A DNA stretch of 64,000 nt from an uncultured Candidatus Saccharibacteria bacterium (GCA_947085855.1 CAMTYB010000002.1:23278-87277), one strand, 5' to 3'. Numbered from the stretch's first letter, positions 42,689-62,880 are shown. Translations and numbers: made by a program. The notes: generated by a model not told the origin, from the letters alone.

Positions 42689-42691
42689 CAG

Positions 42692-43398: not shown

Positions 43399-43422
43399 AA
43401 AAAACGAGCCCAAATGGACTCG
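43399..43422 (-). terminator. intrinsic terminator, interpreted as the displaced terminator of tRNA-Gln
   Basis: Minus strand reads CGAGTCC-ATTT-GGGCTCG (7-bp stem with one G-U) followed by TTTTTT. No minus-strand gene lies immediately upstream of it. Confidence 0.6.
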
Positions 43423-43430
43423 CCTTTTCG

Positions 43431-43438
43431 TGGCTGGG
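43431..43438. repeat. left copy of 8-bp direct repeat TGGCTGGG (putative attL core)
   Basis: Identical to 62807-62814, which is the complement of the tRNA-Gln 3' end CCCAGCCA. Lies 8 nt from the orphan terminator. Confidence 0.5.
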
Positions 43439-43559
43439 CTAGTGTCCCGTAGGTGGAACCACCTTTATCCAACATTACTCAGTATATATCAAAAACTAGA
43501 CAGTCTTGGCTTCGAATATATAGAGGGTAAAGTCTCATATCCAGAGTTGGAGGAACACG

Positions 43560-44036
43560 ATGTTTAGCTCACGCAAGACCTCTCCTGACGACCTCCTAAC
43601 TTCAAGGCTTTTTGATGACAGAACATTCTACAATAGCTTCCTGAGTGATCTCAAGAAGGCTAAGCATGAAGTCCTTATCGAGAGTCCCTACATGACAACT
43701 AACAGGCTTACCCTGTTAGAGCCCAGCCTGCGCAAACTCATCAAAAAAGGTGTAAAGATACGTGTACATACACGTTTTCCGGGGCATCATGATGAACTCC
43801 TGAGAATTCAAGCTTGGATCGTCACAAAACGCCTCAAGGAGATGGGTGTTAAAGTTAAGTTCTTTAACGATTACCATCACCGCAAGATAGCCGTACTCGA
43901 TAGCCGCATATTATGGGAAGGTAGTCTTAATATTCTCTCTCAAAGCAATAGCAGAGAGATCATGCGGCGCATTGAGTCGGAGCAACTAGCCAAGCAGATG
44001 ATACAGTTTCTGGGGCTAAAGCGATTTTACTGGTAA
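43560..44036 (+). CDS. phospholipase D-family (single HKD) nuclease, Nuc-like
   Basis: Complete HKD signature HRKIAVLDSRILWEGSLN = HxK(x)4D(x)6GSxN. 158 aa, no signal peptide. Confidence 0.8.
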   Translation: MFSSRKTSPDDLLTSRLFDDRTFYNSFLSDLKKAKHEVLIESPYMTTNRLTLLEPSLRKLIKKGVKIRVHTRFPGHHDELLRIQAWIVTKRLKEMGVKVKFFNDYHHRKIAVLDSRILWEGSLNILSQSNSREIMRRIESEQLAKQMIQFLGLKRFYW

Positions 44037-44049
44037 AATGGAGGGTATT

Positions 44050-44247
44050 ATGGCAGAAGATTACGAAATCAATGAAAAAGATATTGAGAGCACGATACGC
44101 TTTCTAAAAATTCATGATCCTGAGAATGCGACACCAGAGAAAGCTATTGCTCTGCTTGAAGACTTACGGGCTGGCGTGCATCAAATGTCTCACTCCAACC
44201 CTGAGCTTCTCGAAAAACTCCTCAAAGATCTTAAGAGGTCGTCCTAA
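44050..44247 (+). CDS. small acidic helical protein coupled to the PLD nuclease gene
   Basis: ATG 44050 is preceded by GGAGGG (44039-44045). An alternative ATG at 44038 lies 1 nt after the PLD stop. 65-69 aa. Confidence 0.5.
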   Translation: MAEDYEINEKDIESTIRFLKIHDPENATPEKAIALLEDLRAGVHQMSHSNPELLEKLLKDLKRSS

Positions 44248-44456
44248 ACTTCAAAGACATCGGTTGATTTGGCGCCGAGGGCTTTGACAATATCTAGCAC
44301 TACCTCGGCAGAGACTCGTACATCAGCTCGTTCAATACGGGCATAGTAGTTCACACTAACGCCTGCCTTTTTGGCGACATCCGCTTGTGTCATCCCCTTT
44401 CTGAGGCGAATCTGTTTCAGGTTCTTAGCAATGGTGCGTCTTGTTTTTTCACTCAT
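44244..44456 (-). CDS. XRE-family helix-turn-helix regulator
   Basis: LRKGMTQADVAKKAGVSVNYYARIERA HTH_3 pattern. Divergent from the OLD-family operon. Confidence 0.85.
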   Translation of the reverse strand: MSEKTRRTIAKNLKQIRLRKGMTQADVAKKAGVSVNYYARIERADVRVSAEVVLDIVKALGAKSTDVFEV

Positions 44457-44490
44457 AGTATTCTGGAATTATTGTAGCATGCCCCTCTAT

Positions 44491-44519
44491 CTGACAAGAG
44501 AGGCAAAAAGTAGTAGAAT
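44491..44519 (+). promoter_or_regulatory. promoter candidate for the OLD/DUF2130 operon with an overlapping imperfect inverted repeat
   Basis: CTGACA (44491-44496), 17-nt spacer, TAGAAT (44514-44519). Imperfect IR GCCCCTCT / AGAGAGGC (44481-44488 / 44497-44504) brackets the -35. Confidence 0.4.
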
Positions 44520-44562
44520 AATAAGGAAATATATGGTTTAGGAATAAGAAGATTGAAGACGA

Positions 44563-46269
44563 ATGAAACTAGTAAAGTTTGCTGTAAACAATTTCAGATG
44601 TATCTCAGGAGGTACAGATAGCAATTATATAGACTTTGAGGAAGCGAATGCTATTTTTATTTTTGGACAAAATAATGTTGGTAAGTCCACTTTTCTTAGA
44701 GCCTATGAGGTATTTTATGAAGATAAAATTACCCCAGACGACTATAACCATTCTGCGGAGAATGATATTGAAGTCGAGGCGTGGTTCAGGATCGATGAGT
44801 CACAGGATAAACCGATTATCGATGAGGGAACCTCAAACAAATTCGATAACTTAAAAGAAAACTATTTAAGCGATGGCTTGCTTAAGATTAAAAAGTCTTG
44901 GCAGTATGCAGACAAAGGCAAGTCTCCATCTAGCCAGACATATAATATAAAGACAGAGACTTGGGATGTTAAGGCCTATGGCGGGATAGGCGCTCACTCC
45001 GTGTTTAAGCCTTTGATGTTGAAACCACTCTTTATTCAAGCAATGCCAAGTGAAAAACAAGTCGAAGACATAGTCAACGAGATCTTGAAAGAAGCAGCCA
45101 CAAAAAAACTTTCCGATCAAGAAAGCCAGGAATTAAAGGACGCCGAAGAGAAGATCTCAAATCTGCAAGACAAGGTTTATAGCAAGACTGCGATTTCAGA
45201 ATATCGCACTAAGGTGAATGAGAAGTTCAGCGCTTTATTTAGTGACTATGAAGTGGATATCGATGATGGTACTTCAAAGGTGAAATATACTCACGATAAA
45301 TTAGGTAAAGACTTTAAGATTACCTTTAATAAAACCGATACAAACAAAGCTAGTACATACATGCAAATGGGGCATGGTGCTGTGCGTATGGCTATATTTC
45401 TATTAATGCTGATGCGTGACGAGCTGCGGGAGACGGGAGTTGCAGAAAAGAACTATCTAGTGTTGTTTGAAGAGCCCGAACTGTTTCTACACCCAACACT
45501 CACGAAGAAACTACGGGATTTAATATATGAGGTTAGCGATGATGATATGCCATTTCAGGTTCTCTCGGCATCACACTCCCCTCAAATGATAGATATAAGC
45601 AAAGACCACACATCTTTAGTAAGAATGACTCGGGAAGAAGATGCATCAACTTCCCTGTTCCAGGTTAATAAAGAAGATCTTAAGAACCCCGAACAGCAGA
45701 CAGATGAAGCTGTTAAGAATAAGATTTATGAGATACTTCGATTCGATCCTTTTATCTGCGAATCATTCTATGCTGACGAGGTTGTGCTTGTTGAAGGAGA
45801 CACAGAGGCAATTATTTGGCGCGGTTTTCAGCAGGAGTTTAAGTCAAAGAAAGATGTATTCGTAGTTAATTGTCACTCATGTACTAACATCCCCTTCTAC
45901 CAGAAAATATTCTCAAAGTTTAATATACCTTACAGTGTAATCTGCGATACCGACGCTAACAGCGGGTGGGACAATAATACAACCAGTCCAAAGTTTACGG
46001 CAGGTATCCAAAAAAGTATCGCAGAACAATTTTATGCAGATTTAGACAATAAAAAGTCAAAGCATTTTCTTGTTTTTGAGGAGACGTTTGAGCCAGCACA
46101 CATAAAACTGAGTGATCCTTTTCAGTATGATGCTTCTGGCACAGAAGGTAAGCCATTCAAAGCAGATCGCTATTGGAGGCAACTCATTGAAAATAAAGAG
46201 ACTGATGGGTTTGATGCGATCCCTATAGTTAGTTATATGAAGGTAATTTCAGGGGAAAATAATGGATAA
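44563..46269 (+). CDS. OLD-family ATP-dependent nuclease (ABC-type ATPase plus Toprim)
   Basis: Walker A FGQNNVGKST, LVLFEEPELFLHP (Walker B/D-loop of AAA_15/21 type), C-terminal Toprim VVLVEGDTEAIIW and ICDTD. Confidence 0.8.
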   Translation: MKLVKFAVNNFRCISGGTDSNYIDFEEANAIFIFGQNNVGKSTFLRAYEVFYEDKITPDDYNHSAENDIEVEAWFRIDESQDKPIIDEGTSNKFDNLKENYLSDGLLKIKKSWQYADKGKSPSSQTYNIKTETWDVKAYGGIGAHSVFKPLMLKPLFIQAMPSEKQVEDIVNEILKEAATKKLSDQESQELKDAEEKISNLQDKVYSKTAISEYRTKVNEKFSALFSDYEVDIDDGTSKVKYTHDKLGKDFKITFNKTDTNKASTYMQMGHGAVRMAIFLLMLMRDELRETGVAEKNYLVLFEEPELFLHPTLTKKLRDLIYEVSDDDMPFQVLSASHSPQMIDISKDHTSLVRMTREEDASTSLFQVNKEDLKNPEQQTDEAVKNKIYEILRFDPFICESFYADEVVLVEGDTEAIIWRGFQQEFKSKKDVFVVNCHSCTNIPFYQKIFSKFNIPYSVICDTDANSGWDNNTTSPKFTAGIQKSIAEQFYADLDNKKSKHFLVFEETFEPAHIKLSDPFQYDASGTEGKPFKADRYWRQLIENKETDGFDAIPIVSYMKVISGENNG

Positions 46270-47407
46270 ACTGACTTGTCCGCATTGCGGCAGAGAGGTT
46301 GAGCTTACTGAGGCTTTTACCAAAGATATTGAGAAAACATTACTTGAAGCTGAGCATAAAAAACATATTGCTGAGATTGAACAGGTTCGAAAGGACGCTG
46401 AGACAAAAGCTCGTACAGCTGCCGAGGCTAAGATTGATCTAAAACTCAAGCAACTGGAGTCTGCCAGCGAAGAAGATAGAAAAGAAAATAAGGAATTGAG
46501 AACACAGATAGTCACCTTAACTACTGAGCTTCGTGCATCAAGAAAAACGGCTGAAAATGCTGAGCTGGAAATGCAAAAGAAGCTCACTGAGGAAGAGGCT
46601 AAGATTCGTGAGGCAGCCGATAAGTCTGCGGACGAAAAACAACGTCTCAAGCTTGCCGAGAAAGATAAGCAGCTAGAGGCTGCCCGAAAGGCTAACGAAG
46701 ACCTACAAAGAAAACTTAATCAAGGTTCGCAACAAATGCAGGGCGAGATTCTTGAACTTGACCTTGAAAATGCCCTATCAGCTGAATTCAAAGATGATTT
46801 AATTGCGCCTGTAGAAAAAGGCATCAAAGGCGCAGATATTAAGCACTCCGTGCGTACACCTTTAGGCAATGAGTGTGGCGTAATTCTGTGGGAAATCAAA
46901 CGCACGAAAGCTTGGACTGAGGGCTGGATTGCAAAACTCAAGAATGATCTCCGAGAGACTAAGGCAAATATTCCGGTCATTATTACCGAAGTGATGCCTA
47001 AAGATATAGATGGAGAAATACATTTTCATAATGGTGTATGGATTGCGAAGCCAGCATCGGCTTTGATACTTGCTGCCCTGCTTCGAAAAAGCTTGCTTGA
47101 TGTGGCTCGCGAAAAGGCCATTACTAAGCATCGAGGTACGAGCGCGGACGCTCTCTATACCTTCGTGACGAGTCATGAGTTTGTACAGCAAATCGAGGCA
47201 ATGGTTGAAGTTTACATGGAGATGATTACCGACATCACTAAGGAGAAGGCAAGCTTTGATCGAGTATGGGCAAAACGTGAAGCACAGGCTAAGAAGCTAC
47301 TGGGTAGCACAGCTAATATTATTGGCAGTATGCAAGGACAACTAGGTACCGGTGCAATGCCAAAAATTAAGGGGCTTGAGTTGCTTGAGCCTGGCGACCA
47401 AGCCTAA
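46262..47407 (+). CDS. DUF2130-like protein: Zn-ribbon, long coiled coil, PD-(D/E)xK nuclease-like C-domain
   Basis: N-terminal LTCPHCGREVEL, about 150 aa of E/K/A-rich heptad-like sequence, then GADIKHSV...GVILWEIKRTKAW (D...ExK). Overlaps the OLD gene by 8 nt. Confidence 0.65.
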   Translation: MDKLTCPHCGREVELTEAFTKDIEKTLLEAEHKKHIAEIEQVRKDAETKARTAAEAKIDLKLKQLESASEEDRKENKELRTQIVTLTTELRASRKTAENAELEMQKKLTEEEAKIREAADKSADEKQRLKLAEKDKQLEAARKANEDLQRKLNQGSQQMQGEILELDLENALSAEFKDDLIAPVEKGIKGADIKHSVRTPLGNECGVILWEIKRTKAWTEGWIAKLKNDLRETKANIPVIITEVMPKDIDGEIHFHNGVWIAKPASALILAALLRKSLLDVAREKAITKHRGTSADALYTFVTSHEFVQQIEAMVEVYMEMITDITKEKASFDRVWAKREAQAKKLLGSTANIIGSMQGQLGTGAMPKIKGLELLEPGDQA

Positions 47408-47619
47408 TCCCGGAACAATTCCTTCATCTTTATTTTTAGTGCTTTGGCGATCTTCTCTACGTTCTTGACGGAAGGGTTGCGTACCCCTCTCTCAATACCA
47501 GATATATATGTACGATCTAATCCAGTCATAAAGCCTAGTTCTTCTTGGGATAATTCCGCAGCTAGTCGGTACTCACGTACTCTCTTACCAAGTTTCTGCT
47601 GAGTGCTTAAACGTGCCAT
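47404..47619 (-). CDS. XRE-family helix-turn-helix regulator
   Basis: LSQEELGFMTGLDRTYISGIERG HTH_3 pattern. Divergent from the tail-fibre-like cluster. Confidence 0.85.
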   Translation of the reverse strand: MARLSTQQKLGKRVREYRLAAELSQEELGFMTGLDRTYISGIERGVRNPSVKNVEKIAKALKIKMKELFRD

Positions 47620-47632
47620 ATACTCAATAGTG

Positions 47633-47644
47633 GCAACATGTTGC
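47633..47644. promoter_or_regulatory. 12-bp perfect palindrome GCAACATGTTGC just upstream of the second XRE gene (candidate operator)
   Basis: Read directly at 47633-47644, 14 nt from the XRE start codon at 47619. Confidence 0.35.
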
Positions 47645-47786
47645 TTATGAGACTACGGACTATAAGTCACAATCGAGCTTGATTTCTATCTGCTAGACTG
47701 CTATTAATTGTAATAATGCTTATGCAGCAATGAGGCGAACAAGTAAAAATATGAACACAACCACACAACACGACAAAGTACCTTAC

Positions 47787-47815
47787 TTGACAGGCGAAAC
47801 CAGTCTATGGATAAT
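47787..47815 (+). promoter_or_regulatory. sigma70-type promoter for the tail-fibre-like cluster
   Basis: TTGACA (47787-47792), 17-nt spacer, GATAAT (47810-47815). Confidence 0.5.
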
Positions 47816-47881
47816 CATAACTAGTATGAGGGACAAAATAAACAATACTATCTGCTCTAATTCCAGGGACACTATATAGCC

Positions 47882-48394
47882 ATGCCCAGTAGACTCCCAA
47901 CACCAGGAGGAGACCAAGGTTCTTGGGGAGACATCCTCAATGACTTTCTAGAACAAAGCCATGCTAGTGATGGCTCACTGAAAGACGGAGTAGTAACTAA
48001 TGCCAAAGTATCCGCTACTGCAGCCATAGCTAAGACTAAACTAGCCAGTGATGTCCAAACATCTCTGGACGCTGCAGACAATGCTATTCCTGCAAGTCAA
48101 AAAGGTGCGAGCGGTGGTGTAGCATCCCTCACCGGCACAACCCTAACCCCCGCACAAATACCTACCACAGTCGTTACTAAGTCAACCGATTCAAACGATA
48201 CTGGCAAAGCCATAGATGCTCATACTGGAGCCCCGCTTGTGGTGGTAAGTAAGAGCGATGGGCTAGGAGTCGTAGTGCACGGCGGCAACGCGAACACCGC
48301 GCGTCCCGCCGGCTACGCCGTCGTGCATTGGATTGGGTCGGTCGAGCCCATCAATGCCGTAGACGACGACCTTTGGGCAGATACGAGCGTCTGA
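47882..48394 (+). CDS. phage minor-tail/tail-fibre-like protein, compositionally chimeric
   Basis: The N-terminus LPTPGGDQGSWGDILNDFLEQSHASDGSLK resembles the N-terminal motif I associate with actinophage minor tail proteins. GC jumps inside the ORF near 48.25 kb without breaking the frame. Confidence 0.55.
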   Translation: MPSRLPTPGGDQGSWGDILNDFLEQSHASDGSLKDGVVTNAKVSATAAIAKTKLASDVQTSLDAADNAIPASQKGASGGVASLTGTTLTPAQIPTTVVTKSTDSNDTGKAIDAHTGAPLVVVSKSDGLGVVVHGGNANTARPAGYAVVHWIGSVEPINAVDDDLWADTSV

Positions 48395-49833
48395 TGACGA
48401 AGCTCCGCCGCAAAATGTCGGGGAACTTCGTGGGACGTGGTCCAAACGGCGAGCGAGTCCCACCCAAAACACCCGCGTATTCCACGTCGGCTGACATTCA
48501 GGTCGCCTCCATCTCCGAGTTGCTTGCGGCGGTAGCGGCGCTCGGTCCCAGCGGAGGCGGGTCGGTAATCGAGATCACCGCTAGCTCTCTGGCCGGTCAG
48601 ATCACGATTCCGAATAACTCCAACTCCGCGTCATGGACAGAGAACGTTCTGGTACGTCCACGGCTTGGTGAACGATGCAGCGTTGGGTTGCTCTCGAGCA
48701 GTTGCGCAAACGTCACCTTCGCTGGACTGGACTTCGAAAAGCAATACGCGCCTAGTACCGATCAGTGCCAGGCATACCTCAACAACACCGCCCACGGTTC
48801 TGGTTTCTGGCGATGTCGGAACCTTGATCCAATTCTCATCCAGTTCCGGGCACTCACCGATCCATGCTCGAATTGCTTCCTCTGCGAATGGGTCCAGCCG
48901 GATTGGCAGTTCTTCTACGTTCAGGACTTCTGCAACTTCGGCAGCCAAGGCCCCCTGTTCGACGGCTGCTACCTCGCCCCCATGGCCGTGACGCTGTATG
49001 ACGATGACTGGACGGTCGGCGCGACGACGTACGCCAATCCTGGTCGCCCGTTCGACTACCACAACGATGGAGCGGTCCAAGCGGGCACGTCCGTGACGCT
49101 CGGGATCTGCGACGGCGAGTACAGCTTCGGCCCGCCGAACCTGGCGCTCCTCATGTATCTCGACGACAGCCGGCATGACGCAGTGACCGCCACGGTCAGC
49201 GTCAACGGCACCGAGTGGGCTTCACTAACACTCGTCGGGCCGGACTACCGCCTTGCGCTCCGTCGGGGAGATATCGACCGCAGCTTCTCCGACGGCGATG
49301 TCGTAACGGCGACGTTCGACAAGGACGTAACCGGCGTCCACCTCGCGGCCGGTGTAGATATCACCGGCAACCCGAGCGCCGGCACGCCTGGCGTCCACGG
49401 GGACGTTTTCCAAGCGTACGCATCGGGAGAGTTCAGCCCTGGCGTACCGAGGATCGCCAAGGACTTCACATGGCGGGATTCTGTCATCGGCGCGACCACG
49501 TCGCTCAACTCGGCGTTCCAGTTCAACCCGACCTTGCAGGGCGAATTCGTCTGGGACAACTGCTTCATCGGCGCTACGGGCGGCAACAACGTTTGGGGCA
49601 ACATCGCGAATCCGGGCTACGACATCTGGCGCGAATACGTGCAGGGTTGTGACTGGCAAGGTCAGGCGAGTCTCACCGCTGACGGCTTGCTTAGTCTCTT
49701 TGCGAATAACACCTACAACGGCCTGAGTGGCACATACACCCCGGACGGCACGAATACCAACCGTGGTGCGGCCATGAAGACGCCGCCGCCTCCAAACCTC
49801 GCAGCCATCTGGCCGGAGTGTCCGCCGCTATGA
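48394..49833 (+). CDS. high-GC protein, possible right-handed beta-helix (depolymerase/tail-spike-like)
   Basis: ATG 48394 overlaps the upstream TGA (TGATG). The N-terminal SELLAAVAALGPSGGGSVIEITASSLAGQITIP pattern resembles beta-helix proteins. The functional call is weak. Confidence 0.5.
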   Translation: MTKLRRKMSGNFVGRGPNGERVPPKTPAYSTSADIQVASISELLAAVAALGPSGGGSVIEITASSLAGQITIPNNSNSASWTENVLVRPRLGERCSVGLLSSSCANVTFAGLDFEKQYAPSTDQCQAYLNNTAHGSGFWRCRNLDPILIQFRALTDPCSNCFLCEWVQPDWQFFYVQDFCNFGSQGPLFDGCYLAPMAVTLYDDDWTVGATTYANPGRPFDYHNDGAVQAGTSVTLGICDGEYSFGPPNLALLMYLDDSRHDAVTATVSVNGTEWASLTLVGPDYRLALRRGDIDRSFSDGDVVTATFDKDVTGVHLAAGVDITGNPSAGTPGVHGDVFQAYASGEFSPGVPRIAKDFTWRDSVIGATTSLNSAFQFNPTLQGEFVWDNCFIGATGGNNVWGNIANPGYDIWREYVQGCDWQGQASLTADGLLSLFANNTYNGLSGTYTPDGTNTNRGAAMKTPPPPNLAAIWPECPPL

Positions 49834-50828
49834 GCGCTCCAACGATCGTCTCCAAGGACGTCCACGGGTTCGGGGCGGACACCACCTCCCCCGGAATCAC
49901 CCTTCCAAGCTCGCCCGCGGTACTGCCGGGCGACATCATCATCTGCGCATGGCACGTCGCCGGACTTAACACGAGCACCGCCCCGGTCGTCCCTAGCGGC
50001 TTTACCGAACTGATCCGGAGCGGCAGCACCGTAGCTGCCATCACGGTGGCGGCAAAGATCGCATCGGGCGGCGAAGAGGGATCGACGTTCACTCCAGCGT
50101 CGGCGACCATCAGCCGAGCATGGACCACGTCGGTGTTCGTGGTCCGCGGCGGCCCGACTAACCTCGCACACCTGCTGGCGAACGGTAACAACGTGGCGGC
50201 GACGATCTCTCGTCCGGTCTTGACGGTTACTACTGCCACCGTCGACAACCTCGTGCTTGCCGGTGCTGCGGTCGAAGGTGGAGCCAACACCCTGACCGAC
50301 CCTGGTAGCCCATGGAGTCCAGATGACCAGGCCGCGAGCACCGGAAGCAGCGCTAGTTATGCGACCGCGATTCACGCAACAAAAGCCACCCCGGGGACGA
50401 CCGACGGGAGTTCGTGGACGGCAACCACTACCGGGAAGTGGGCTAGGTGGACAGTCGCAATCCCTCCCAATGTCAATCAACCCCCTGCGGTCGGCTCAAT
50501 CACGCCTGGCTACATCGTTGCCACGGTCGGAGAGGAGTACTCAGCAACGGCCACGGCAACAGACTCCGATGGCGCAATCGCTTCGTGGGCATGGCAACAG
50601 AACGCGACGGGCACCAACGTAACGGCTCCGGCGCTCAGCGGTGCAGACACAGCCACAGTGACCTTCACCCCAACGGAGTTGGGCGCCTTCACGCTTCAGG
50701 TAGTTGCCACAGACGATGACGGCTCGGATTCCGTCCCCGCGTACCTGCCCGTGATCGTGACCCACCAGCGCGACATCGCGCTGAAGGTGCGATCCGGGGG
50801 AACTTTTCAAAGTGTCGACCTGATTTGA
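49830..50828 (+). CDS. high-GC protein with C-terminal PKD/Ig-like domain (minor-tail-like)
   Basis: ATG 49830 overlaps the upstream TGA (ATGA). The C-terminal PPAVGSITPG...ATATDSDGAIASWAWQQ...TVTFTPTELGAFTLQVVATDDDGSDS resembles a PKD-type repeat. Confidence 0.55.
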   Translation: MSAPTIVSKDVHGFGADTTSPGITLPSSPAVLPGDIIICAWHVAGLNTSTAPVVPSGFTELIRSGSTVAAITVAAKIASGGEEGSTFTPASATISRAWTTSVFVVRGGPTNLAHLLANGNNVAATISRPVLTVTTATVDNLVLAGAAVEGGANTLTDPGSPWSPDDQAASTGSSASYATAIHATKATPGTTDGSSWTATTTGKWARWTVAIPPNVNQPPAVGSITPGYIVATVGEEYSATATATDSDGAIASWAWQQNATGTNVTAPALSGADTATVTFTPTELGAFTLQVVATDDDGSDSVPAYLPVIVTHQRDIALKVRSGGTFQSVDLI

Positions 50829-50895
50829 TCTCCACGCTTGGGGATTTGTGAGAGTCAGATAGCACCCTCGCCTAAATACACAGCCAACTATTTGC

Positions 50896-51660
50896 TTATC
50901 GAGTTGGTAGATATTTTGTATGGGGCACCGGCATCATAGGCCTGGTTCTTTTACCAATCGGTTCCAGTAATTCAATAGGTGAAACGCTACGAAGGTAGAG
51001 TGCAGTCACATCCAGTCTGGCATGACCAAGCTGTTGTTGGATGCGATATACATCAATACCTTCACGCCATAACTCAACCGCATGTTCGTGTCGGAAGCAA
51101 TGCGGATTAGCTCTTCTTCTCAACCCAGCTCGTTTGGCAGCACGCCTTAGTTGTCGCCGTATGTCAGACGCATGGACAGACCTTCCGGCTGTCGATCCCG
51201 TAAGGACACAAAACAATGCTCCATACGGCAGCTCCTTTCTTGCTATACGCCACTGCTCTAGCGCTTGCCATCCCCACTCGTCCATGGCAGATACGCGACG
51301 CTTATCTCCCTTTCCATGTCGCACCGTGATGGAAAAGTCATGACGGTTGAGATCACGCTCTTCAAGCGCCAGTGCCTCACTTATGCGTAGTCCCGAACGC
51401 CATAGTAGTGCAATCAGGGCTTGCAAGCGCAGTGCGCCTAGTTGCTGGTCAAGACGTGGCTTTGGGTAGTTAGGTGGCTCGCAGGCCTTTATTAGCTTAA
51501 AGATATCTTCTACTGCAATAGGGTCTGGTGGAAACTTCTTCCCCTTTGTCTTTGGCGATATGCCCTTACGAAAACCTGGCATGGTTGAGCTTGATCTTCG
51601 CCTGCCACGGATGTCTCGCACCTCAGTGATTGCGAGTGGTGATTGCTGTAGTGTAAACAT
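50896..51660 (-). CDS. tyrosine recombinase, catalytic-core-only (254 aa)
   Basis: RISEAL (Arg), HGKGDKRR (Lys), HCFRHEHA (His-x-x-Arg), LGHARLDVTALYL (His, Tyr nucleophile). No obvious N-terminal core-binding domain. Confidence 0.8.
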   Translation of the reverse strand: MFTLQQSPLAITEVRDIRGRRRSSSTMPGFRKGISPKTKGKKFPPDPIAVEDIFKLIKACEPPNYPKPRLDQQLGALRLQALIALLWRSGLRISEALALEERDLNRHDFSITVRHGKGDKRRVSAMDEWGWQALEQWRIARKELPYGALFCVLTGSTAGRSVHASDIRRQLRRAAKRAGLRRRANPHCFRHEHAVELWREGIDVYRIQQQLGHARLDVTALYLRSVSPIELLEPIGKRTRPMMPVPHTKYLPTR

Positions 51661-51908
51661 GATATGTACTCCTTCTTAGTAGTTAAGTTGCTACAGTTGA
51701 ACGAGGATAACATGTTTTGCCATATAGTTTGATAAAAAGCGAGGACATGTGGCTTGGCGTTGCACTTTTTGCGCTTGTTTTCATTAAATAATCATTAAAT
51801 TCCCGTGTGAATTTCGTCACATTGTGAAAGATTTTTCAAATTCATTGTAAGCGTTTTCAACACCTTAGCGGTGTTATTTTATTGTGCTTATCTTTATTAA
51901 AAAACTAT

Positions 51909-51923
51909 TTGCAAATATTGCAA
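51909..51923. promoter_or_regulatory. 15-bp perfect palindrome TTGCAAATATTGCAA upstream of the T4SS pilin gene (candidate operator)
   Basis: Read directly. Lies 39 nt before GTG 51962. Confidence 0.35.
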
Positions 51924-51961
51924 GCTGTGATAAATGTAGAGGCACAAAGGAGGATAACAAC

Positions 51962-52303
51962 GTGAGAAGTCAAAAACAGCTGCTATTTGTAGCACTATTC
52001 GCGGCAGTGGGGATGCCGTTGTTTGTGAGCGCCCCGGCACTAGCAGCCGGGGGAGATATCGGGCAAGTGGAGAACTTCATACGCTCGATCATAAAGGTCA
52101 TTGCAGGTTTAGCCGGTCTCATCGCGACCGGTTTTTTTGTGGTCGGAGGATTCACCTACATCACCAGCAGTGGCAACCCAGAGCAGTTGGATAAAGCAAA
52201 GCGGACGCTTACGTGGTCAGCCATAGGGCTTGCCATCGTGATTGCGGCCTTTGTGATCTCCAATATTGTGACGAGCTTGGCTACGTCTGCTTTTGGAGGC
52301 TAG
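51962..52303 (+). CDS. T4SS pilin, TrbC/VirB2-like
   Basis: GTG 51962 follows AGGAGG (51950-51955). Signal peptide ...PLFVSAPALA-AG, then two hydrophobic helices flanking YITSSGNPEQLDKAKR. Confidence 0.65.
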   Translation: MRSQKQLLFVALFAAVGMPLFVSAPALAAGGDIGQVENFIRSIIKVIAGLAGLIATGFFVVGGFTYITSSGNPEQLDKAKRTLTWSAIGLAIVIAAFVISNIVTSLATSAFGG

Positions 52304-52337
52304 ATGGATCTTTAAATAGTTAACGAGGAATGGTTGC

Positions 52338-53828: not shown

Positions 53829-54346
53829 AGATAACTGTTGTACCAGCTCAGGTCACCACCGTCGAAGATAGGATTATGGGCAGTCTCGGCTTCTCGCAGA
53901 TGTTACTGCTCGTTTGCCCGGTGTTTATTTCAGCTCTATTGTTTGCAGGCTTGCCGCCGTTCATGGAGGGTGCCTGGTATAAGTACGTCCTCATTGGTGT
54001 ACTGACCGTCCTCTGCTGTATCTTGGCTATCCGTATTAAAGGCAAGATTGTGGCGCTGTGGTTAGTGACCATCCTGCGCTATAACCTACGACCAAAGTAC
54101 TATCTGTTCAACAAAAATACCGTATCCTACCGCGAAATGTATGCCCAGTCATCTGAAGCCGATGATAGAGCAAGTAATGAAAAGTCCGATGCACGTGAGC
54201 ATCACCATCTGCCAAAGCTGGCTCTTCCAGATAAAGCCCGGGTGCTGGCTGCTATTGAGAATCCTGCATCTAAGCTCAGATTTGAAACAACCAAGAAAGG
54301 AGGCATTCATGTTCGCCTTACAGAAATCGAAGAACAAAACATCTAG
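53825..54346 (+). CDS. PrgI/VirB3-like small T4SS membrane protein
   Basis: VPAQVTTVEDRIMGSLGFSQMLLL followed by two TM helices, as in PrgI-family proteins. ATGA overlap with the upstream gene. Confidence 0.5.
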   Translation: MKITVVPAQVTTVEDRIMGSLGFSQMLLLVCPVFISALLFAGLPPFMEGAWYKYVLIGVLTVLCCILAIRIKGKIVALWLVTILRYNLRPKYYLFNKNTVSYREMYAQSSEADDRASNEKSDAREHHHLPKLALPDKARVLAAIENPASKLRFETTKKGGIHVRLTEIEEQNI

Positions 54347-54935
54347 TCGTCAACAAGTCGCCATTAAGGGGGTGCGTGACGGTATTCTGATCCTGCCTGG
54401 CAACCAGTACCGGGCGGTACTGAAAGTCTCATCGCTCAACTTTGAACTCAAAAGCGAAGTTGAGCAGGACGCCATTATTGATACCTATGAGAGTTTTCTA
54501 AATTCCGTCGGTACCAGCCTGCAAGTCTTGATCCGTACTCGTGAAATAGATATGGATAAGTACCTAGAAGATTTAAATGAGCGGCTGCAGGATGAGCCTG
54601 AGGCAATCTATAGGTCGCAGCTAAAACACTACGACGAGTTTATCCGCTCACTCATTACGACTAACAAAATCTTGACGCGCCATTTTTACATCGTGATTCC
54701 ATATAGTGCCGGTGCAAAGGCTAACTTTGAGCTGGTGCAAGAGCAGCTCAACCTCAAAGTCGACATTGTCAGTAAAGGCATGACCAGACTCGGTATGCAC
54801 ACCACCCAACTAACCGATCTTGAACTATTCGATTTGTTCTATACGTTCTACAGTCCGGCTCAAGCGAAACTGCAACCACTCAGTAGTCGCATGATGCTTG
54901 CTATTAACAGTGCGCTTGTAGAAAGGAGTGTGTAA
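54309..54935 (+). CDS. VirB4/TrsE N-terminal domain as a separate ORF
   Basis: ATG 54309 follows AAGGAGG (54296-54302). IKGVRDGILILPGNQYRAVLKVSSLNFELKSEVEQDAIIDTYESFLNSV is the typical VirB4 N-terminal region. The stop overlaps the next ATG (TAATG). Confidence 0.6.
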   Translation: MFALQKSKNKTSSRQQVAIKGVRDGILILPGNQYRAVLKVSSLNFELKSEVEQDAIIDTYESFLNSVGTSLQVLIRTREIDMDKYLEDLNERLQDEPEAIYRSQLKHYDEFIRSLITTNKILTRHFYIVIPYSAGAKANFELVQEQLNLKVDIVSKGMTRLGMHTTQLTDLELFDLFYTFYSPAQAKLQPLSSRMMLAINSALVERSV

Positions 54936-56668
54936 TGGATAAGTTGTTGTCCCCACTCAAGAAACGGAGCGAAGCGCGGGAAGAAAAGCGCCGCGAATTA
55001 TCGATTACCTTTGGTGAGCAAGATGCGCTTGATGTGCTGAGCTATTCAGGACTCGAAGAAAACATAGATTACCTGATGATCGACGGGGTTTACATCCGTA
55101 CACTGTATATTTCTGGCTATCCTTTTGTGGCAAGCTCTGGTTGGATGGATAGCTTGATTAACTTTAATCACGACACCGACATTAGTTACCACCTTCATGA
55201 GGTAAACGCATTATCGGCACTACCGAAACTGCACCGTAAGATTACGGAGCTTGAGAGCACTAAGCGTGCCATGATGCGCGCCGGTAAAATTGTTGGCAGC
55301 GAGATAACCGACCCGCTCGAGTCGGCCATTGAGCTCAGAGACAAGATCCAGCGTGGTCAGGAAAAACTGTTTCAGATGAGTATCTATGTTTGCGTGCGAG
55401 CAGATAGCTTGGAGGAGCTGAACAAGATAACCAAGTTACTGGAAGCGACCATGTCAGCTCGTTTGTTTTACTCCAAAGTTGCCCGCTATGAACAACTCGA
55501 AGCCTTGCAGTCTATCTTACCTAGGGGTGAAGACCAGCTGCACCAGAAGCGCAACTTAGATAGCAGTTCTGCCGCTTTGACATTCCCATTCATGTCATCC
55601 GAACTCGTCCAGGAATCGGGCATTTTGTATGGCGTCAACAAATCAAATAACAGCCTAGTCATCTTAGATCGCTTTAGCCTGCACAACGCGAACTCGATTG
55701 TGTTTGCGCAGAGTGGCAGTGGTAAGAGCTACACCACCAAAGTTGAGATACTCCGTCAGCTTATGCAAGGCACTAAGGTTATTGTGATTGACCCTGAGCG
55801 GGAGTATAAGCGCCTGACAGAATCAGTCGGTGGTACGTATATAAAACTCAGTGCCAAGAGTAAAGAAAAGGTGAATCCTTTTGACCTTGCTACAACCTTC
55901 CACAATATTAGTGATCTTTCTGAGCACGCCCAAGACTTAACTGAAGTCATTAGCCTGATGGCCGAAGGGCTATCTGGCCGCGAAAAAGCCGCCGTCGACA
56001 AGGCAATCTTACGAGTTTACAAAAAAGCCAAAGGTACGCAGCCTCTGCTCGAAGATTTCTATGCTGAATTACAAACCTTAGGCCAGCTCAAACTGTGCGA
56101 ACGACTGGAGAAGTATATATCTGGGTCGCTAGCAGATGTCTTTAATGCCCAAACCAACATCAAACTAGATAACCGCCTAGTAATCTTTGACATTAAAGAT
56201 TTACCGGAAAGCTTGCGGCAAATCATGATGCTGATAATCTCCAACTTCGTCCAAAACCAAGTCAAAGCAAGACCAGAAAAGCGGCTCCTCATCATAGACG
56301 AAGGCTGGATGTTACTTGAGCACGAACAATCGGCTCGGTTTGTGTCCGGCCTGGTGCGCCGCGCTCGTAAGTACTACTTAGGTGTATCGATCATCTCCCA
56401 GCAAGCAAACGACTTCTTAAGATCTGACTACGGCCGCGCTATCGCCAGTCAATCTGCCCTCCGAATCCTGATGCGCCAAGATACCACCACTATTAAAAAT
56501 GTGGTCAGTGAGTTTAACTTGAGTGAATACGAACAAAGTTATCTGCTGACCTGTGAGCGAGGTGACGCCTTGATTATTGCTGATCAGCATCACGTGGCCG
56601 TCAAGGTTGTTGCCAGCGATAAAGAACACCCCCTCATTACCACCAACCCTGCGGAGCTGTACTCGTGA
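54935..56668 (+). CDS. virB4: VirB4-like T4SS ATPase (ATPase domain)
   Basis: Walker A VFAQSGSGKSYTTK and Walker B RLLIIDEGW. 577 aa. Confidence 0.85.
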   Translation: MDKLLSPLKKRSEAREEKRRELSITFGEQDALDVLSYSGLEENIDYLMIDGVYIRTLYISGYPFVASSGWMDSLINFNHDTDISYHLHEVNALSALPKLHRKITELESTKRAMMRAGKIVGSEITDPLESAIELRDKIQRGQEKLFQMSIYVCVRADSLEELNKITKLLEATMSARLFYSKVARYEQLEALQSILPRGEDQLHQKRNLDSSSAALTFPFMSSELVQESGILYGVNKSNNSLVILDRFSLHNANSIVFAQSGSGKSYTTKVEILRQLMQGTKVIVIDPEREYKRLTESVGGTYIKLSAKSKEKVNPFDLATTFHNISDLSEHAQDLTEVISLMAEGLSGREKAAVDKAILRVYKKAKGTQPLLEDFYAELQTLGQLKLCERLEKYISGSLADVFNAQTNIKLDNRLVIFDIKDLPESLRQIMMLIISNFVQNQVKARPEKRLLIIDEGWMLLEHEQSARFVSGLVRRARKYYLGVSIISQQANDFLRSDYGRAIASQSALRILMRQDTTTIKNVVSEFNLSEYEQSYLLTCERGDALIIADQHHVAVKVVASDKEHPLITTNPAELYS

Positions 56669-57210
56669 ACGCTGGCCTGTTTGCTATTGGTTTGCTGACG
56701 GGCGGTAATACGAAGAAACAGATTGGCCTAGTACTCGCTACAATGGCGATCATTCTATCGCTGCCGTTCATGGCAGTGACGGCAATGGGGTCAAGTGTGC
56801 TCACGTTTCTCTCGAGCGTTCCGAACGCTGAAGCGGCTGAGCTGCAAGGCTTTTACATGGGTGGGCCAGTGCCTGGTGACACCTACGAATGGGGCAACTG
56901 TACCTACTGGTCGTTTGCCCAGCGACTGTGGGCAAATAACCCCATCCCGACTACCTGGGGCAATGCGAACACCTGGGACGATTATGCTAAACGAGATGGC
57001 TATGAGGTGAATAACACTCCTTTACCTGGAGCAGTCTTCCAGACAGACAGTGGCTATTGGGGGCATGTGGCGTTCGTCACCAAGGTTGAGCCAAACGGCA
57101 GTTGGACGATATCCGAGATGAACGTGAAGGGACTAAATATTGTCTCGACCCGCACCTTTCCCAAAGATGCCGCAATCTTTTACAGCTTTATCCATAACAA
57201 GGTGCGCTAG
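56665..57210 (+). CDS. CHAP-domain peptidoglycan hydrolase (VirB1 functional analogue)
   Basis: N-terminal TM/signal, then GNCTYWSFAQRL (Cys) and GHVAFVTKV (His). Confidence 0.8.
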   Translation: MNAGLFAIGLLTGGNTKKQIGLVLATMAIILSLPFMAVTAMGSSVLTFLSSVPNAEAAELQGFYMGGPVPGDTYEWGNCTYWSFAQRLWANNPIPTTWGNANTWDDYAKRDGYEVNNTPLPGAVFQTDSGYWGHVAFVTKVEPNGSWTISEMNVKGLNIVSTRTFPKDAAIFYSFIHNKVR

Positions 57211-59811: not shown

Positions 59812-59818
59812 ATAAAAA

Positions 59819-59855
59819 GAAGGCTTCTGTTTCCTCGCAAGGAGCACAAGCCTTC
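59819..59855 (-). terminator. hairpin between convergent virD4-like and Replic_Relax-like genes (terminator candidate)
   Basis: GAAGGCTT (59819-59826) pairs with AAGCCTTC (59848-59855). On the minus strand it is followed by TTTTTATT (59811-59818). Confidence 0.45.
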
Positions 59856-59911
59856 CTGGGTTTGATTATAGCTGCATTGCGTCCACAACGAAATCGTTAT
59901 GGAAGCCCTAA

Positions 59912-60727
59912 TTAAAGCGCAGTAAGCTTTCCAGGCTCATAGACACTGCTCCACACTGCCGCAGTTGCATCTGAGACCTTCAGAGCCTTCATGGTCGTCA
60001 AATAAATCTGCAAGTCGTCTATACCAGCGTTGTCGAGAGTCTTATAAATATGATGTTGTAGTTTCTTTTCCATGCTGGAATCTGCACAGACGAGCAAGAT
60101 GGTTGGGTAGTCAGTTTTTGAGCTTGCTTCCCAGTCACCTGAATCAAAGTGTTCAAGAAGTGCTGCAAACTCCTTCTTTATGATGAAAAGTGCCTTATCA
60201 GTATAGATATGAAGGATGTACTCATTCGTAGTGGCAGAGGGCTTGATTCTATTTAGGTAGAGGTCTGGTCGGGGCTCGGGCATGTAGCTGTACTTAGTAA
60301 GCTCGGTCTTGGTGAAGATATGAAAGGTTTCTGCATAGCTTGCTCGTAAGGCAAGGTAGACTTTGAAGGTGTTTGTATATTGGTCTATATAGCTTTCAGA
60401 CACTGACTTATTGTTATACATAATATGCAGCGCCTTTTCATTGACGCCTTCACTGCGCAATAGCTTCACCGATTCAGTCGTGAGATAGTAGCGAGCGCCT
60501 TTGTTCTGAAATAATTCATTGCCTGTTACTCGTTTGTCCAAGTATCCATTTTCTACCAAACGTTCTAATGCATTAAACATAGATTGTCTGCTTTTCAGGT
60601 TCTTGTACTGAGCTAGTAATGGTGCTGTTATGAATCTAAATTTATAAGCTAGTTTCAGTATGTGTAGTTGTTTTTTAGTTACTTGAGGTTTAGCAGTAGG
60701 GTCTGGCCTGGCTATAGTCTTTCGCAT
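59912..60727 (-). CDS. Replication-relaxation (Replic_Relax)-like protein
   Basis: The N-terminal winged-helix pattern VTKKQLHILKLAYKFRFITAPLLAQY...ALERLVENGYLDKRV resembles the family. Not verified by search. Confidence 0.45.
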   Translation of the reverse strand: MRKTIARPDPTAKPQVTKKQLHILKLAYKFRFITAPLLAQYKNLKSRQSMFNALERLVENGYLDKRVTGNELFQNKGARYYLTTESVKLLRSEGVNEKALHIMYNNKSVSESYIDQYTNTFKVYLALRASYAETFHIFTKTELTKYSYMPEPRPDLYLNRIKPSATTNEYILHIYTDKALFIIKKEFAALLEHFDSGDWEASSKTDYPTILLVCADSSMEKKLQHHIYKTLDNAGIDDLQIYLTTMKALKVSDATAAVWSSVYEPGKLTAL

Positions 60728-60893
60728 CTAGTATGGTTGCTGCCTCTCTCCACCGTTCTGTTATTTCTCCCTATATAGTACATATAAAAGAGGAAGAATA
60801 ATAGGGTTAATTTATATCTGTTAAAACGTGTAAATTATAAATACATCGGGGTATTCATTATTTGTGGAAAACTTTATCATAAAAAGTACTTGC

Positions 60894-60937
60894 AACTATC
60901 TCTATCAAGATAGTATACTATATCTATAGAGATAGTT
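60894..60937. promoter_or_regulatory. 12-bp perfect inverted repeat with nested GATAG/CTATC palindromic spacer (candidate oriT or operator)
   Basis: AACTATCTCTAT (60894-60905) and ATAGAGATAGTT (60926-60937) flank a 20-nt spacer CAAGATAGTATACTATATCT. Confidence 0.45.
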
Positions 60938-60962
60938 AATCTCTGAAGCGAGGGTATAAAAA

Positions 60963-61157
60963 ATGGCAAGAACCAAGGGCGCTAAAAACAAGAACACCGA
61001 CACTTTACCTCATTATGTGAAGCTTCCGACAGAGGCTAAAGTACAGTTCCTTGCGGCACTTATCGTTGACTGTATCCAGGCCGACCAAACACAGGGCGGT
61101 AAGTTACTGAAACAAGTGAGGGTCAAAGATCGTGGAAGACCAACGCTACTTACCTAA
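60963..61157 (+). CDS. small basic protein upstream of and overlapping the serine recombinase gene
   Basis: 64 aa. ATG follows GAGGG (60951-60955). Function unknown. Confidence 0.45.
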   Translation: MARTKGAKNKNTDTLPHYVKLPTEAKVQFLAALIVDCIQADQTQGGKLLKQVRVKDRGRPTLLT

Positions 61158-62806
61158 AAACGCTGTCGCTGCGATTCGGGTGTCTTCAGTAAAGCAAGGC
61201 ACTCAGGGCGATTCGCCTGATGCTCAGAAAGAGCAAATTGAACGCTATGCCGAAAGCCATAACCTTGTTATTAAAAAGATCTTCGTATTTCTAGAGTCTG
61301 CTAGTAAAGAACAGCAGCCCATGCAGGAAGCCATCGATTACTGCAAGAATCCTAAGAATGGTGTACAGCTCTTTATCATTAAGTCTATCGATCGTTTTAC
61401 GCGAGGCGGCTCTTATTCATATGACCATCTCAAGCTACAACTAGAAAAGTATGATGTGCAGCTGGTGGATATATACGGCGTTATTAGCTCGCAAAAAGTA
61501 AATACACTCGATCACTTAGGCGTTGAATACAAATGGAGCGTCTACTCCCCGACGCAGAAGGCGGAGATATTAGAGGCCGAACGAGCCAAGGATGAAATGC
61601 GCGACATTATGAGCCGTATGATTGGTGCTCAAATACGCTATGCCCGTATGGGCTACTGGGTCAGAAAACCACCCTTTGGCTTTGACAATAAGAAGGTTGA
61701 GACAGCTAATGGTAAGCGCTGTATTCTTGTGCCGCATCCCACAGAAGCCGAGTTCATAATCAAGATGTTTGAGTTGAGGGCTAAAGGCACACTTAACGAT
61801 GAACAGATTGTCGATAAGATAAATCAAATGGGCTATGTGTCCAGAACAGACCTATTGCGAGATAAGAGTGACCGTTCAAGGGTTATTGCTAAGAGAGGTG
61901 GGCAGGAACTGATCCTCAAGACATTCTGGAGGATGATTCAAAATCCGGTGTATGCTGGCGTCAATCCTGAGAAATGGACACAGGGTAAGCCTGTGAAGTG
62001 TCATTTTGACGGACTGGTATCAATAGAACTCTTTAATAAGGCTAACCGCGGTAAGATTACTATCACCGAGAATAATGGTGAGGTTGAGATATATCGGCGT
62101 AAACCACCAGAGCATTTAGTGAAAAAAGGCGTCCGTAACCCTGACTTCCCATACAAGCGTGAGGTTATGTGCCCAGAATGCGAGAAACCACTCTACGGTA
62201 GTGCGTCGCGTGGCAGGCTTGGCAAGTATTACCCTGCTTACCATTGTAATAAACGTGGACACTATTTCAGAGTGCCTAAGGCTGATTTTGAAAAGACCAT
62301 TGAGAACTTCGTGAAGAGCATTCGCATAGCACCAGAGCGGATCAGCGAGCTAGAGGAAGCGGTCATCGCTGAGTGGAACAAGCGACAAGCAGAGGTTCAA
62401 AAAGATGAACTGAGCATAGATGTACGTATTACTGAACAGAAGACATCTGCTGCTATGGCAATGGATAAGATTAAATACTTAAACTCAGAGACAGCAATTA
62501 AATATATGGAGGATGAACTTATGAAAACAGAGGATCAGATCGCGTCGTTAATGGCACAAAAGGAGAAACTAAAACAGGCAGAAACCACTCAAATCAGTAC
62601 CGTTATGGACTATATACGATATTTTCTGGAACACCTTGAGTATCTACTACTCCAACAGATGAATCCAGTCGCAAAAGCGGGTTATTTTGGCTTAATTTTC
62701 GACAAAGCACCCACATACCGGGAAATAATTTCTGGAACCGAAGATATTACGAAAATTTCAGGAGTGAATGAGCTATTCTTAGCCCTGAATGATGATTCAG
62801 GACACA
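61132..62806 (+). CDS. large serine recombinase (3' end undefined: no in-frame stop before 63375)
   Basis: AVAAIRVSSVKQGTQGDSPDAQ (catalytic Ser), recombinase domain, Zn-ribbon CPECEKPLYG...YHCNKRGH, coiled-coil insert. Recombinase-like sequence ends at about aa 558, where the ORF runs antisense into tRNA-Gln. Confidence 0.8.
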
Positions 62807-62814
62807 TGGCTGGG
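62807..62814. repeat. right copy of 8-bp direct repeat TGGCTGGG (putative attR core, equal to the tRNA-Gln 3' end)
   Basis: The complement is CCCAGCCA, the last 8 nt of the tRNA including the CCA. Confidence 0.5.
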
Positions 62815-62880
62815 GATGAGGGATTCGAACCCCCGATCTCGGGACCAGAACCCGGTGCCTTACCACTTGGCCAATCCCCA
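62807..62880 (-). tRNA. tRNA-Gln (anticodon CUG), CCA encoded
   Basis: Hand-folded. Acceptor UGGGGAU/AUCCCCA with U1-A72 and discriminator G, as in E. coli tRNA-Gln. D arm GCCAAGUGGUAAGGC, anticodon arm CCGGG-UUCUGGU-CCCGA, T arm GGGGG-UUCGAAU-CCCUC. Hidden inside track ORF 61132..63375 (translated as GDEGFEPPISGPEPGALPLGQSP). Confidence 0.85.

Follow-up and report, generated by a model that had tools for sequence, protein, structure and literature searches.

The interval 43439-62806 of a 64,000-nt stretch of DNA from an uncultured Candidatus Saccharibacteria bacterium (GCA_947085855.1 CAMTYB010000002.1:23278-87277; the whole stretch is called the window here) is probably an integrated element of the integrative and conjugative (ICE) type, inserted at the 3′ end of a tRNA-Gln gene in the chromosome of a member of the Saccharimonadia (Patescibacteria). 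The element is bounded by an intact tRNA-Gln gene at one end and by a displaced tRNA-Gln tip with its terminator at the other, and it encodes a large serine recombinase of an apparently undescribed family whose members lie against tRNA 3′ ends. Joining the two ends of the element on paper leaves the recombinase reading frame open across the junction, and genes for a type IV secretion system (T4SS) and a candidate relaxase lie between these ends; taken by itself, this gene content suggests that the element may be self-transmissible.

A flank protein is related to one of Candidatus Saccharimonas aalborgensis and the nearest named homologues come from Saccharimonadales and Patescibacteria, which points to a Saccharimonadia-type host, a tiny parasitic bacterium; exact look-ups of flank and element proteins returned matches from the source samples only. 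Positions 32692-64000 of the window are tiled at 100% identity by three independent unitigs of the Logan assembly of ERR3478710 (L001, L096 and L002).

Boundaries of the inserted interval

The sole tRNA gene that ARAGORN finds in the window is tRNA-Gln(CTG), on the minus strand at 62807-62880, whose 3′ end reads TGGCTGGG on the plus strand. These eight terminal nucleotides, made up of four acceptor-stem bases, the discriminator and CCA, recur in the same orientation at 43431-43438, as the original prediction had stated, and the window holds no other plus-strand copy; the two copies enclose 19,368 bp. An exhaustive count on both strands gave four occurrences against about 1.8 expected, and four or more were seen in 12 of 100 shuffles. 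The repeat by itself is thus not significant and proves nothing alone, in agreement with the caution that had accompanied its first description.

To the left of this copy, and separated from it by eight bases, the minus strand holds a hairpin (CGAGTCC-ATTT-GGGCTCG) followed by T6 at 43399-43422. This too can be read directly from the sequence as predicted, and with its flanks the hairpin folds at -27.2 kcal/mol (z = -6.35), a value that none of 200 shuffles matches, as for a strong hairpin. An A-tract upstream of the hairpin gives it a bidirectional appearance, and a simple terminator scanner run on the window did not list it, probably because pairing of the A-tract with the T-run makes the stem longer. 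The anatomy is that of a tRNA-gene (tDNA) island of the Islander kind, with the intact tRNA-Gln at one end and the displaced 8-nt fragment at the other.

Both boundaries are recovered by comparison with the nearest relative, found in sample ERR9903371 through the 123-aa protein of the right flank (about 90% nucleotide identity). In one of its loci (L005), homology to the window begins exactly at 62807, the 3′ end of the tRNA. In another (L007), a terminator and a complete tRNA-Gln(TTG) come after gmk, in the positions of the gmk gene, terminator and 8-mer of the window, and the alignment places the 3′ end of that tRNA on the left 8-mer. Because a terminator and a tRNA-Gln stand there after gmk in the relative, the left 8-mer is a displaced tRNA end and not a chance repeat. 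Neither of the two tRNA-Gln sites of the relative carries the T4SS-containing block. An insertion at the tRNA tip, with the 8-bp repeat and the displaced terminator as its far boundary, is therefore supported by these two loci and by two related elements, L049 and L020, described below.

A serine recombinase family at tRNA ends and its split gene

The recombinase matches Resolvase (4e-9) and Recombinase (2e-4) in Pfam and the integrase family phrog_95 (1.4e-38). In an alignment of 30 sequences, S18, R88, R91 and the zinc-ribbon residues C347/C350 are invariant and a Y370/H371 motif is conserved, and by this alignment the protein has the domain set of a large serine recombinase, namely a catalytic serine domain, a recombinase domain and a zinc ribbon. 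A full HMMER scan yielded 261 representatives at E < 1e-30, mostly of 560-600 aa, whose C-termini resemble translated antisense tRNA (MAGDEGFEPPMPGPEPGALPLGQSPL, MAGDEGFEPP, GGIRTPD, GGIRTPDT, EGLEPPTS, AGFEPAT, GGDRTHD).

A metagenome scan with alignment of the recombinase proteins identified 390 relatives, of which 80 loci were retrieved, 72 of them extending 90 nt or more past the equivalent junction. Of these 72, 65 have the 3′ end of a convergent tRNA no further than 30 nt from that junction, and in all 65 the recombinase ORF (open reading frame) stays open up to or into the tRNA, with no stop before it. Nineteen isoacceptors are targeted, Gln being the commonest, followed by Glu, Lys, Arg, Val and Trp. 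Across the loci retrieved, targeting of tRNA ends thus holds family-wide. No relative of the window recombinase was found in the viral collection scanned. At L025/L026 (~4520-4690), the recombinase is followed by a tRNA 3′-end fragment of about 25 nt, with an intact tRNA-Gln 78 nt further on, an arrangement that suggests a second, older junction at the same site.

The original prediction placed the serine recombinase against the tRNA, where it indeed lies, but the gene does not merely abut it. Its stop-less ORF crosses the junction, traverses the antisense tRNA and enters a 123-aa host gene (63004-63375) in frame, giving an ORF of 747 aa (61132-63375). The host gene has its own ATG with a GGAGAG ribosome-binding site upstream; it is not on record alone, public gene calls listing a single 747-aa 'recombinase', and this fusion is probably an annotation artefact.

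Three related elements are so short that the retrieved loci include their left ends. L049 (~5.5 kb, at tRNA-Gln) carries an identical TGGCTGGG at both ends, upstream of its PLD homologue and at the tRNA-Gln; L020 (at tRNA-Val) has TGGTGGGT at both ends, and L017 has a longer end repeat. In all three, the PLD homologue lies just inside the left end. When right end, core and left end are joined by computation, only the recombinase frame is open in the window, L049 and L020, and visual inspection of the junction sequences gave the same frame for L017. The reconstructed frame is extended by 41-44 codons, with its stop at or over the start of the PLD gene. The tail so encoded in the window, LVSRRWNHLYPTLLSIYQKLDSLGFEYIEGKVSYPELEEHDV, aligns well with the tails of L049, L017 and L020. 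Differences among the tails are distributed over the codon positions as 126/98/162, and conserved residues are encoded by synonymous codons; the tail is therefore under coding constraint. Since the tail segment starts at the first base of the element, with no space for a ribosome-binding site of its own, its simplest reading is as the C-terminus of the recombinase in the circular form. In the window and the three relatives the joined ends restore one ORF with a conserved tail, and integration thus splits the recombinase gene.

The predicted attachment site of the circle (attP) reads ...CAGGACACA-TGGCTGGG-CTAGTGTCCCG..., with GATTCAGGACACATGGCTGGGCTAGTGTCCCGTAGG as search sequence, and its 8-bp core is flanked by an imperfect inverted repeat, GGACAC...GTGTCC. 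Non-tRNA tails also occur elsewhere in the family. In L055 (1-2430 of a 3.3-kb metagenome contig), the recombinase ends in a 55-aa tail of this kind and is followed directly by the PLD and HTH left-end genes, with no tRNA, and the recombinases of L035, L047 and L087 likewise end in non-tRNA tails; these four may be attP forms or tandem copies, and a search for terminal redundancy in them found none. A copy of about 30 nt of the recombinase 3′ coding end (ATTCGTACAGTCTCAGGnGAAGCTAGCTG) is present just outside the left end of L017 (1940-1990, 11630-11660) and may be the remnant of a tandem or earlier copy. The catalytic and DNA-binding domains recognised all remain in the integrated copy, and the favoured view is that loss of the tail would change or abolish integrase activity after integration.

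Gene content and alternative readings of the locus

Gene content was assigned with Pfam, PHROGs and PADLOC (Table 1). Pfam matches in the interval comprise PLDc_2, OLD-type AAA_15/TOPRIM, DUF2130, Phage_integrase, T4SS_pilin/TrbC, TrbL/VirB6, PrgI, the TraG P-loop (VirB4), CHAP, a T4SS-DNA_transf/TrwB/TraG-D_C coupling protein, and Resolvase with Recombinase, so that the mobile-element-like content foreseen for the interval (recombinases, T4SS, nuclease and defence cargo) is confirmed. Precomputed matches add TrbL_3 and TraC-like domains in the pore region, where VirB4 is recognised as TraG P-loop/AAA_10.

A module of recombinase, orf64, p271 (a 271-aa protein) and VirD4 recurs in many loci. 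VirD4 homologues are linked to the recombinase in about 30 related loci, about 25 have an orf64 homologue immediately before the recombinase gene, and some 40 homologues of p271 adjoin related recombinases. VirB4 and other pore genes are found nearby only in two related loci, L054 and L067, whose VirB4 genes beside homologous recombinase modules are 69-72% identical to that of the window; L067 also keeps the window order VirB4 - VirD4 - p271 - recombinase - tRNA-Gln. Since pore genes adjoin the module only there, most family members look mobilizable, and the window element would be among the few with a full pore, hence ICE-like.

The protein p271 had been called Replic_Relax-like, an assignment that holds through its homologues, 25 of 29 aligned sequences matching PF13814 (Replic_Relax; best E-value 6.4e-16). 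The family profile further matches MarR-family winged-helix structures over residues 9-107. From these profile matches, p271 is a candidate relaxase with a MarR-like winged helix and a divergent Replic_Relax domain of the PD-(D/E)XK, MOB_C class; PF13814 is a PD-(D/E)XK family (PMC3424549) and is listed as the MobC relaxase class in a study of streptococcal integrative mobilizable elements (IMEs; PMC5357655). For orf64, no family match was found in Pfam or PHROGs, and its position suggests a candidate recombination directionality factor.

Table 1. Features of the element and its boundaries, with positions counted from the first nucleotide of the window
Feature	Position	Strand	Basis
Displaced intrinsic terminator of a tRNA-Gln gene	43399..43422	-	Folding; position matches L007 gmk/tRNA-Gln terminator
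Left 8-bp core copy TGGCTGGG (attL), displaced last 8 nt of a tRNA-Gln	43431..43438	.	Aligned with L007 tRNA-Gln(TTG) 3′ end
Left-end coding segment, 42 codons and stop overlapping PLD start	43439..43567	+	Open frame across reconstructed junction
PLD-like nuclease, first gene of conserved left-end module	43560..44036	+	PLDc_2 2.7e-13; MkoC-like in PADLOC
Left-end module: small ORF of 69 aa (+), HTH_3 regulator of 70 aa (-)	44038..44456	both	HTH_3 1.9e-15
Defence-type cargo	44563..47619	.	OLD, DUF2130, HTH_3
OLD-family ATPase/TOPRIM nuclease	44563-46269		AAA_15 3e-27 and OLD-like TOPRIM 4e-14; PADLOC 'Old' 2.7e-63
DUF2130 protein	46262-47407		DUF2130 1.4e-54
Second HTH_3 regulator	47404-47619	-	
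High-GC block, three ORFs	47882..50828	+	57-64% GC
Short tyrosine recombinase, 254 aa, beside high-GC block	50896..51660	-	Phage_integrase 7.6e-26
Mating-pore genes: VirB2-like pilin, VirB6/TrbL-like, PrgI/VirB3-like, TraC-like, VirB4 ATPase, CHAP hydrolase	51884..57210	+	Pfam
VirD4-type coupling protein, 866 aa	57211..59811	+	T4SS-DNA_transf, TrwB_AAD_bind, TraG-D_C
Candidate relaxase p271	59912..60727	-	Replic_Relax via homologues
orf64, conserved 64-aa ORF overlapping recombinase start	60963..61157	+	Conserved upstream position
Large serine recombinase, element-encoded part, 558 codons without stop	61132..62806	+	Resolvase and Recombinase
Right 8-bp core copy (attR), last 8 nt of intact tRNA	62807..62814	.	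L005 homology begins at 62807
tRNA-Gln(CUG), intact, CCA end encoded	62807..62880	-	ARAGORN

The left-end module is shared with related elements: L017, L020 and L049 have a PLD homologue at their left end, in L055 one comes straight after the recombinase, and homologues of the 69-aa ORF and HTH_3 part occur in the same four loci. The block of foreign base composition in the original prediction is also present, GC reaching 57-64% at 48-51 kb against 40-50% elsewhere in the window and about 45% for the element. In GC content the block is similar to Actinobacteria, which are the usual hosts of Saccharibacteria. One of its ORFs has a tail-protein-like N-terminal segment (phrog_2012, minor tail protein, 5e-9) and one a PKD domain (Pfam, 1.2e-6), while its 501-aa ORF matched none of the phage records searched, and a search for repeats flanking the block found nothing convincing. 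The adjacent tyrosine recombinase is internal; the integrase located at the end of the element is the serine recombinase.

Several observations weigh against a single, intact, conjugative element. Some concern its history. In the nearest relative, the tRNA linked to gmk is Gln(UUG), followed by VanY, and not CUG, while tRNA-Gln(CUG) and the 123-aa gene stand at a separate locus with its own, different terminator. The empty site originally predicted (gmk, terminator, tRNA-Gln(CUG) and the 123-aa gene, with CCTTTTCGTGGCTGGGGATGAGGGATTCG as sequence of the CUG version and CCTTTTCGTGGCTGGGGCGGAGGGATTCG of the UUG version) was not seen, and no exact empty site with the same isoacceptor and both flanks was found in the relatives compared. 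The tRNA-Gln(UUG)-VanY locus of the source species itself carries other genes (for 307-aa, 144-aa and 535-aa proteins, the last a beta-helix protein) in place of the gmk block. The flanks of the element match two loci of the relative and therefore some rearrangement occurred: the housekeeping block 37411-43430 (a 184-aa gene, ndk, a formyltransferase gene, thyX, 224-aa and 544-aa genes, and gmk) is found 3′ of tRNA-Gln(CUG) in the window, where the element separates the two, and 3′ of tRNA-Gln(UUG) in the relative; by these gene orders the two genomes differ by an exchange of DNA 3′ of their two tRNA-Gln genes. The assembly graph, in turn, branches on both sides of the tyrosine recombinase, which sits on its own 1,239-nt unitig (L096, 50694-51932) with a 30-nt overlap to each neighbour (50694-50723 with L001, which ends at 50723; 51903-51932 with L002, which starts at 51903); a population variant, an invertible segment or a repeat could cause this. 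A second sample, ERR4904396, shares only 59540-64000, identical in sequence, its contig L003 stopping at 59540, and no identical VirB4 was found in that assembly, so that the content of the element is probably polymorphic, its left part differing between samples. The shared stretch spans the end of virD4, the recombinase, the tRNA and the flank. Other observations concern the tail and the circle: a hidden Markov model (HMM) of the tail found no tail among 150 protein representatives and, among six-frame segments of the loci, only the four elements with a PLD left end, and the predicted circular junction was not found in the viral collection. On the side of transfer, no oriT was identified, p271 alone reaches no Pfam threshold, and an AlphaFold2 model of it built with no alignment is unusable (predicted local distance difference test, pLDDT, 45.8).

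Coincidence of 8-mer and hairpin, with no insertion at these coordinates, would suit the non-significant count of TGGCTGGG, but is already contradicted by the comparative data, since the 8-mer stands where the gmk locus of the relative has its tRNA end, homology breaks exactly at 62807, related elements share the repeat architecture and the recombinase adjoins a tRNA family-wide; this reading is extremely improbable. A composite or rearranged locus deserves more weight, though it too is improbable: the left and right junctions would stem from two tRNA-Gln loci, through recombination between element copies or successive insertions, in which case the last movement may have involved a unit other than the present 19.4 kb, which may have lost the capacity to excise. 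The two separate loci of the relative and the different genes at the tRNA-Gln(UUG)-VanY locus of the source species fit such a history, as do the whole of 37411-62806 (25.4 kb) being extra relative to L005, the small nested remnants bounded by tRNA-tip copies at both tRNA-Gln loci, and the nested high-GC block with its second recombinase, where the graph branches. Yet the ends of the window element join through the shared core into one in-frame conserved ORF, as expected of the two ends of one element, and no further plus-strand core copy lies inside the interval; nor are the gmk-block proteins clearly more divergent than the flanks (identities of 70-88% against 85-91%), which also leaves unsupported a 25.4-kb composite insertion in which the gmk block was imported with the element. 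More distant relatives have no tRNA adjoining gmk and so do not fix the ancestral gene order. The remaining alternative, rather unlikely in our view, is an integrated island that does not conjugate, in which the T4SS serves as a host-interaction apparatus with no DNA transfer and the mobile unit is a mobilizable module (recombinase, orf64, the Replic_Relax protein and VirD4) enclosing or adjoining it. Patescibacterial T4SS have been described as chromosomal, widespread, mostly relaxase-less, co-opted and essential for epibiotic growth (PMC12102498), and most related loci with 10 kb upstream hold only that module. The T4SS genes of the window, however, lie between the left-end module (PLD, orf69 and HTH) and the right-end module and so inside the repeat-bounded unit, the nearest relative lacks the whole block at each of its two tRNA-Gln sites, the pore genes have a coupling protein and a MOB_C-type candidate beside them, and L067 repeats the order from VirB4 to tRNA-Gln. 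An integrated element of the integrative-conjugative type thus remains the preferred reading of 43439-62806.

The two tRNA-Gln genes have the core TGGCTGGGG in common, and with their nested remnants the two loci are integration hot spots. A unit of about 125-165 nt (GGGATAGCGCTTCCCTCGGCTGA...GCCGAACC...) occurs three times at the tRNA-Gln loci of two genomes (L005 9662-9803; L009 7380-7543 and 9720-9850), bounded by copies of the tRNA-Gln 3′ end, including an 18-nt copy in L005, and resembles either a remnant or a miniature non-autonomous element inserted at this target. For the 544-aa flank protein, a scan of the genome collection returned only a 35%-identical locus of Saccharimonas aalborgensis, with no tRNA nearby. 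In a distant relative whose 544-aa protein is about 47% identical (L091-L093, 1-1162), the ndk end of the housekeeping block is followed, after a few genes, by another serine recombinase gene.

Proposed mechanism and comparison with known systems

In the mechanism proposed here, the large serine recombinase would join the attP of the circular element, with core TGGCTGGG, to the extreme 3′ end of the tRNA-Gln gene by a crossover inside the 8-nt core. The tRNA would be rebuilt at the right junction, leaving the old tip and terminator 19.4 kb away beside gmk; the tRNA would thereby be deprived of its terminator, and its transcription may now run antisense into the recombinase gene. With attP inside the recombinase ORF, integration would remove the conserved tail, some 42 codons supplied by the left end, and replace it by read-through of the antisense tRNA, here with a chance fusion to the next host gene (747 aa); only the excised circle would then yield the full-length enzyme of about 600 aa. 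For excision a directionality factor would be required, with orf64 as the candidate. In transfer, p271 would act as relaxase, VirD4 as coupling protein, and VirB4, VirB6, the pilin and CHAP as the pore; the PLD-like and OLD-type nucleases, the DUF2130 protein and the nested high-GC block with its tyrosine recombinase would be cargo.

A broader proposal can be advanced only tentatively, as a conjunction of several claims: that the window element belongs to a large family of patescibacterial elements (at least 390 relatives in one metagenome scan) with the first serine integrases systematically targeting tRNA 3′ tips; that their genes span attP, the tailed enzyme being made only from the circle, as a built-in switch that changes or disables the integrase; and that some members carry a T4SS with a cryptic MOB_C relaxase, so that part of the 'relaxase-less' T4SS would still be conjugative. 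Serine integrases have been stated not to target tRNA genes (PMC4383910), tRNA is not mentioned in the main text of the large serine-integrase survey of Durrant et al., and a literature search for tRNA-targeting or attP-spanning serine integrases and for Saccharibacteria ICEs found none, which is not proof of absence. The integrase family combines two features not found described for serine recombinases, and the element itself would be an ICE.

The latest survey of the widespread T4SS of Patescibacteria found few relaxases and proposed co-option; the window element offers a concrete candidate for conjugation by such a system, and the divergent MOB_C-type protein suggests that relaxases have been overlooked in these bacteria through divergence. 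Integrase genes that cross attP are known only for tyrosine enzymes (Mx8, SSV), and a serine counterpart would extend the idea, as well as tRNA targeting, to this class; the split gene would be a natural experiment on the effect of a C-terminal segment on integrase activity or direction. A serine integrase with an 8-bp core in a conserved tRNA tip would suit site-specific integration in bacteria that are hard to manipulate. Read-through also creates false fusion proteins in public gene calls, here by absorbing a host gene into the recombinase.

Among known systems, monoderm ICEs of the Tn5397/TndX type combine a large serine recombinase with a T4SS of MPF_FATA type. With these, and with the streptococcal IMEs that have serine integrases (PMC5357655), the window element shares a serine recombinase at one end, a monoderm-type VirB4/VirD4/VirB6/CHAP pore, central cargo and short end repeats, whereas it differs in targeting a tRNA 3′ tip, in a recombinase ORF that crosses attP, in a very divergent relaxase candidate of MOB_C type and in its patescibacterial host. 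The T4SS described in Patescibacteria by Quinonero-Coronel et al. 2025 (PMC12102498) are alike in their MPF_FATA-related VirB4, VirB6, VirB2-like pilin, PrgI-like, CHAP and coupling proteins, and MOB_C is there the commonest relaxase class (58/109), relaxases often being close to the coupling-protein gene; in that study, which makes no mention of recombinases, tRNA or att sites, the systems are taken to be chromosomal and co-opted, whereas the cluster of the window lies inside a tRNA-integrated element with its own integrase. The p271 family has the N-terminal winged helix, C-terminal Replic_Relax domain and linkage to a coupling protein of the MOB_C/Replic_Relax family, from which the window copy differs in being too divergent for Pfam alone.

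Islander tDNA islands (PMC4383910) likewise pair an intact tDNA with a displaced fragment, but their integrase is of the tyrosine family. The closest parallels to the split gene are also tyrosine recombinases. In phage Mx8 IntP, attP lies in the 3′ part of int, and integration gives the gene a new 3′ end and the enzyme an altered C-terminus that changes its properties (PMC6070905; cited in PMC4383910), the window enzyme differing in being a serine recombinase. The 'suicidal' integrases of SSV type (PMC7253208) share with the window recombinase an attP inside the integrase ORF, a tRNA target and a split gene that is intact only in the free element; they are, however, archaeal tyrosine recombinases divided into two inactive halves, whereas here a bacterial serine recombinase would lose its last ~42 codons, so that it is an analogue of the SSV-type integrases and not a member of their class.

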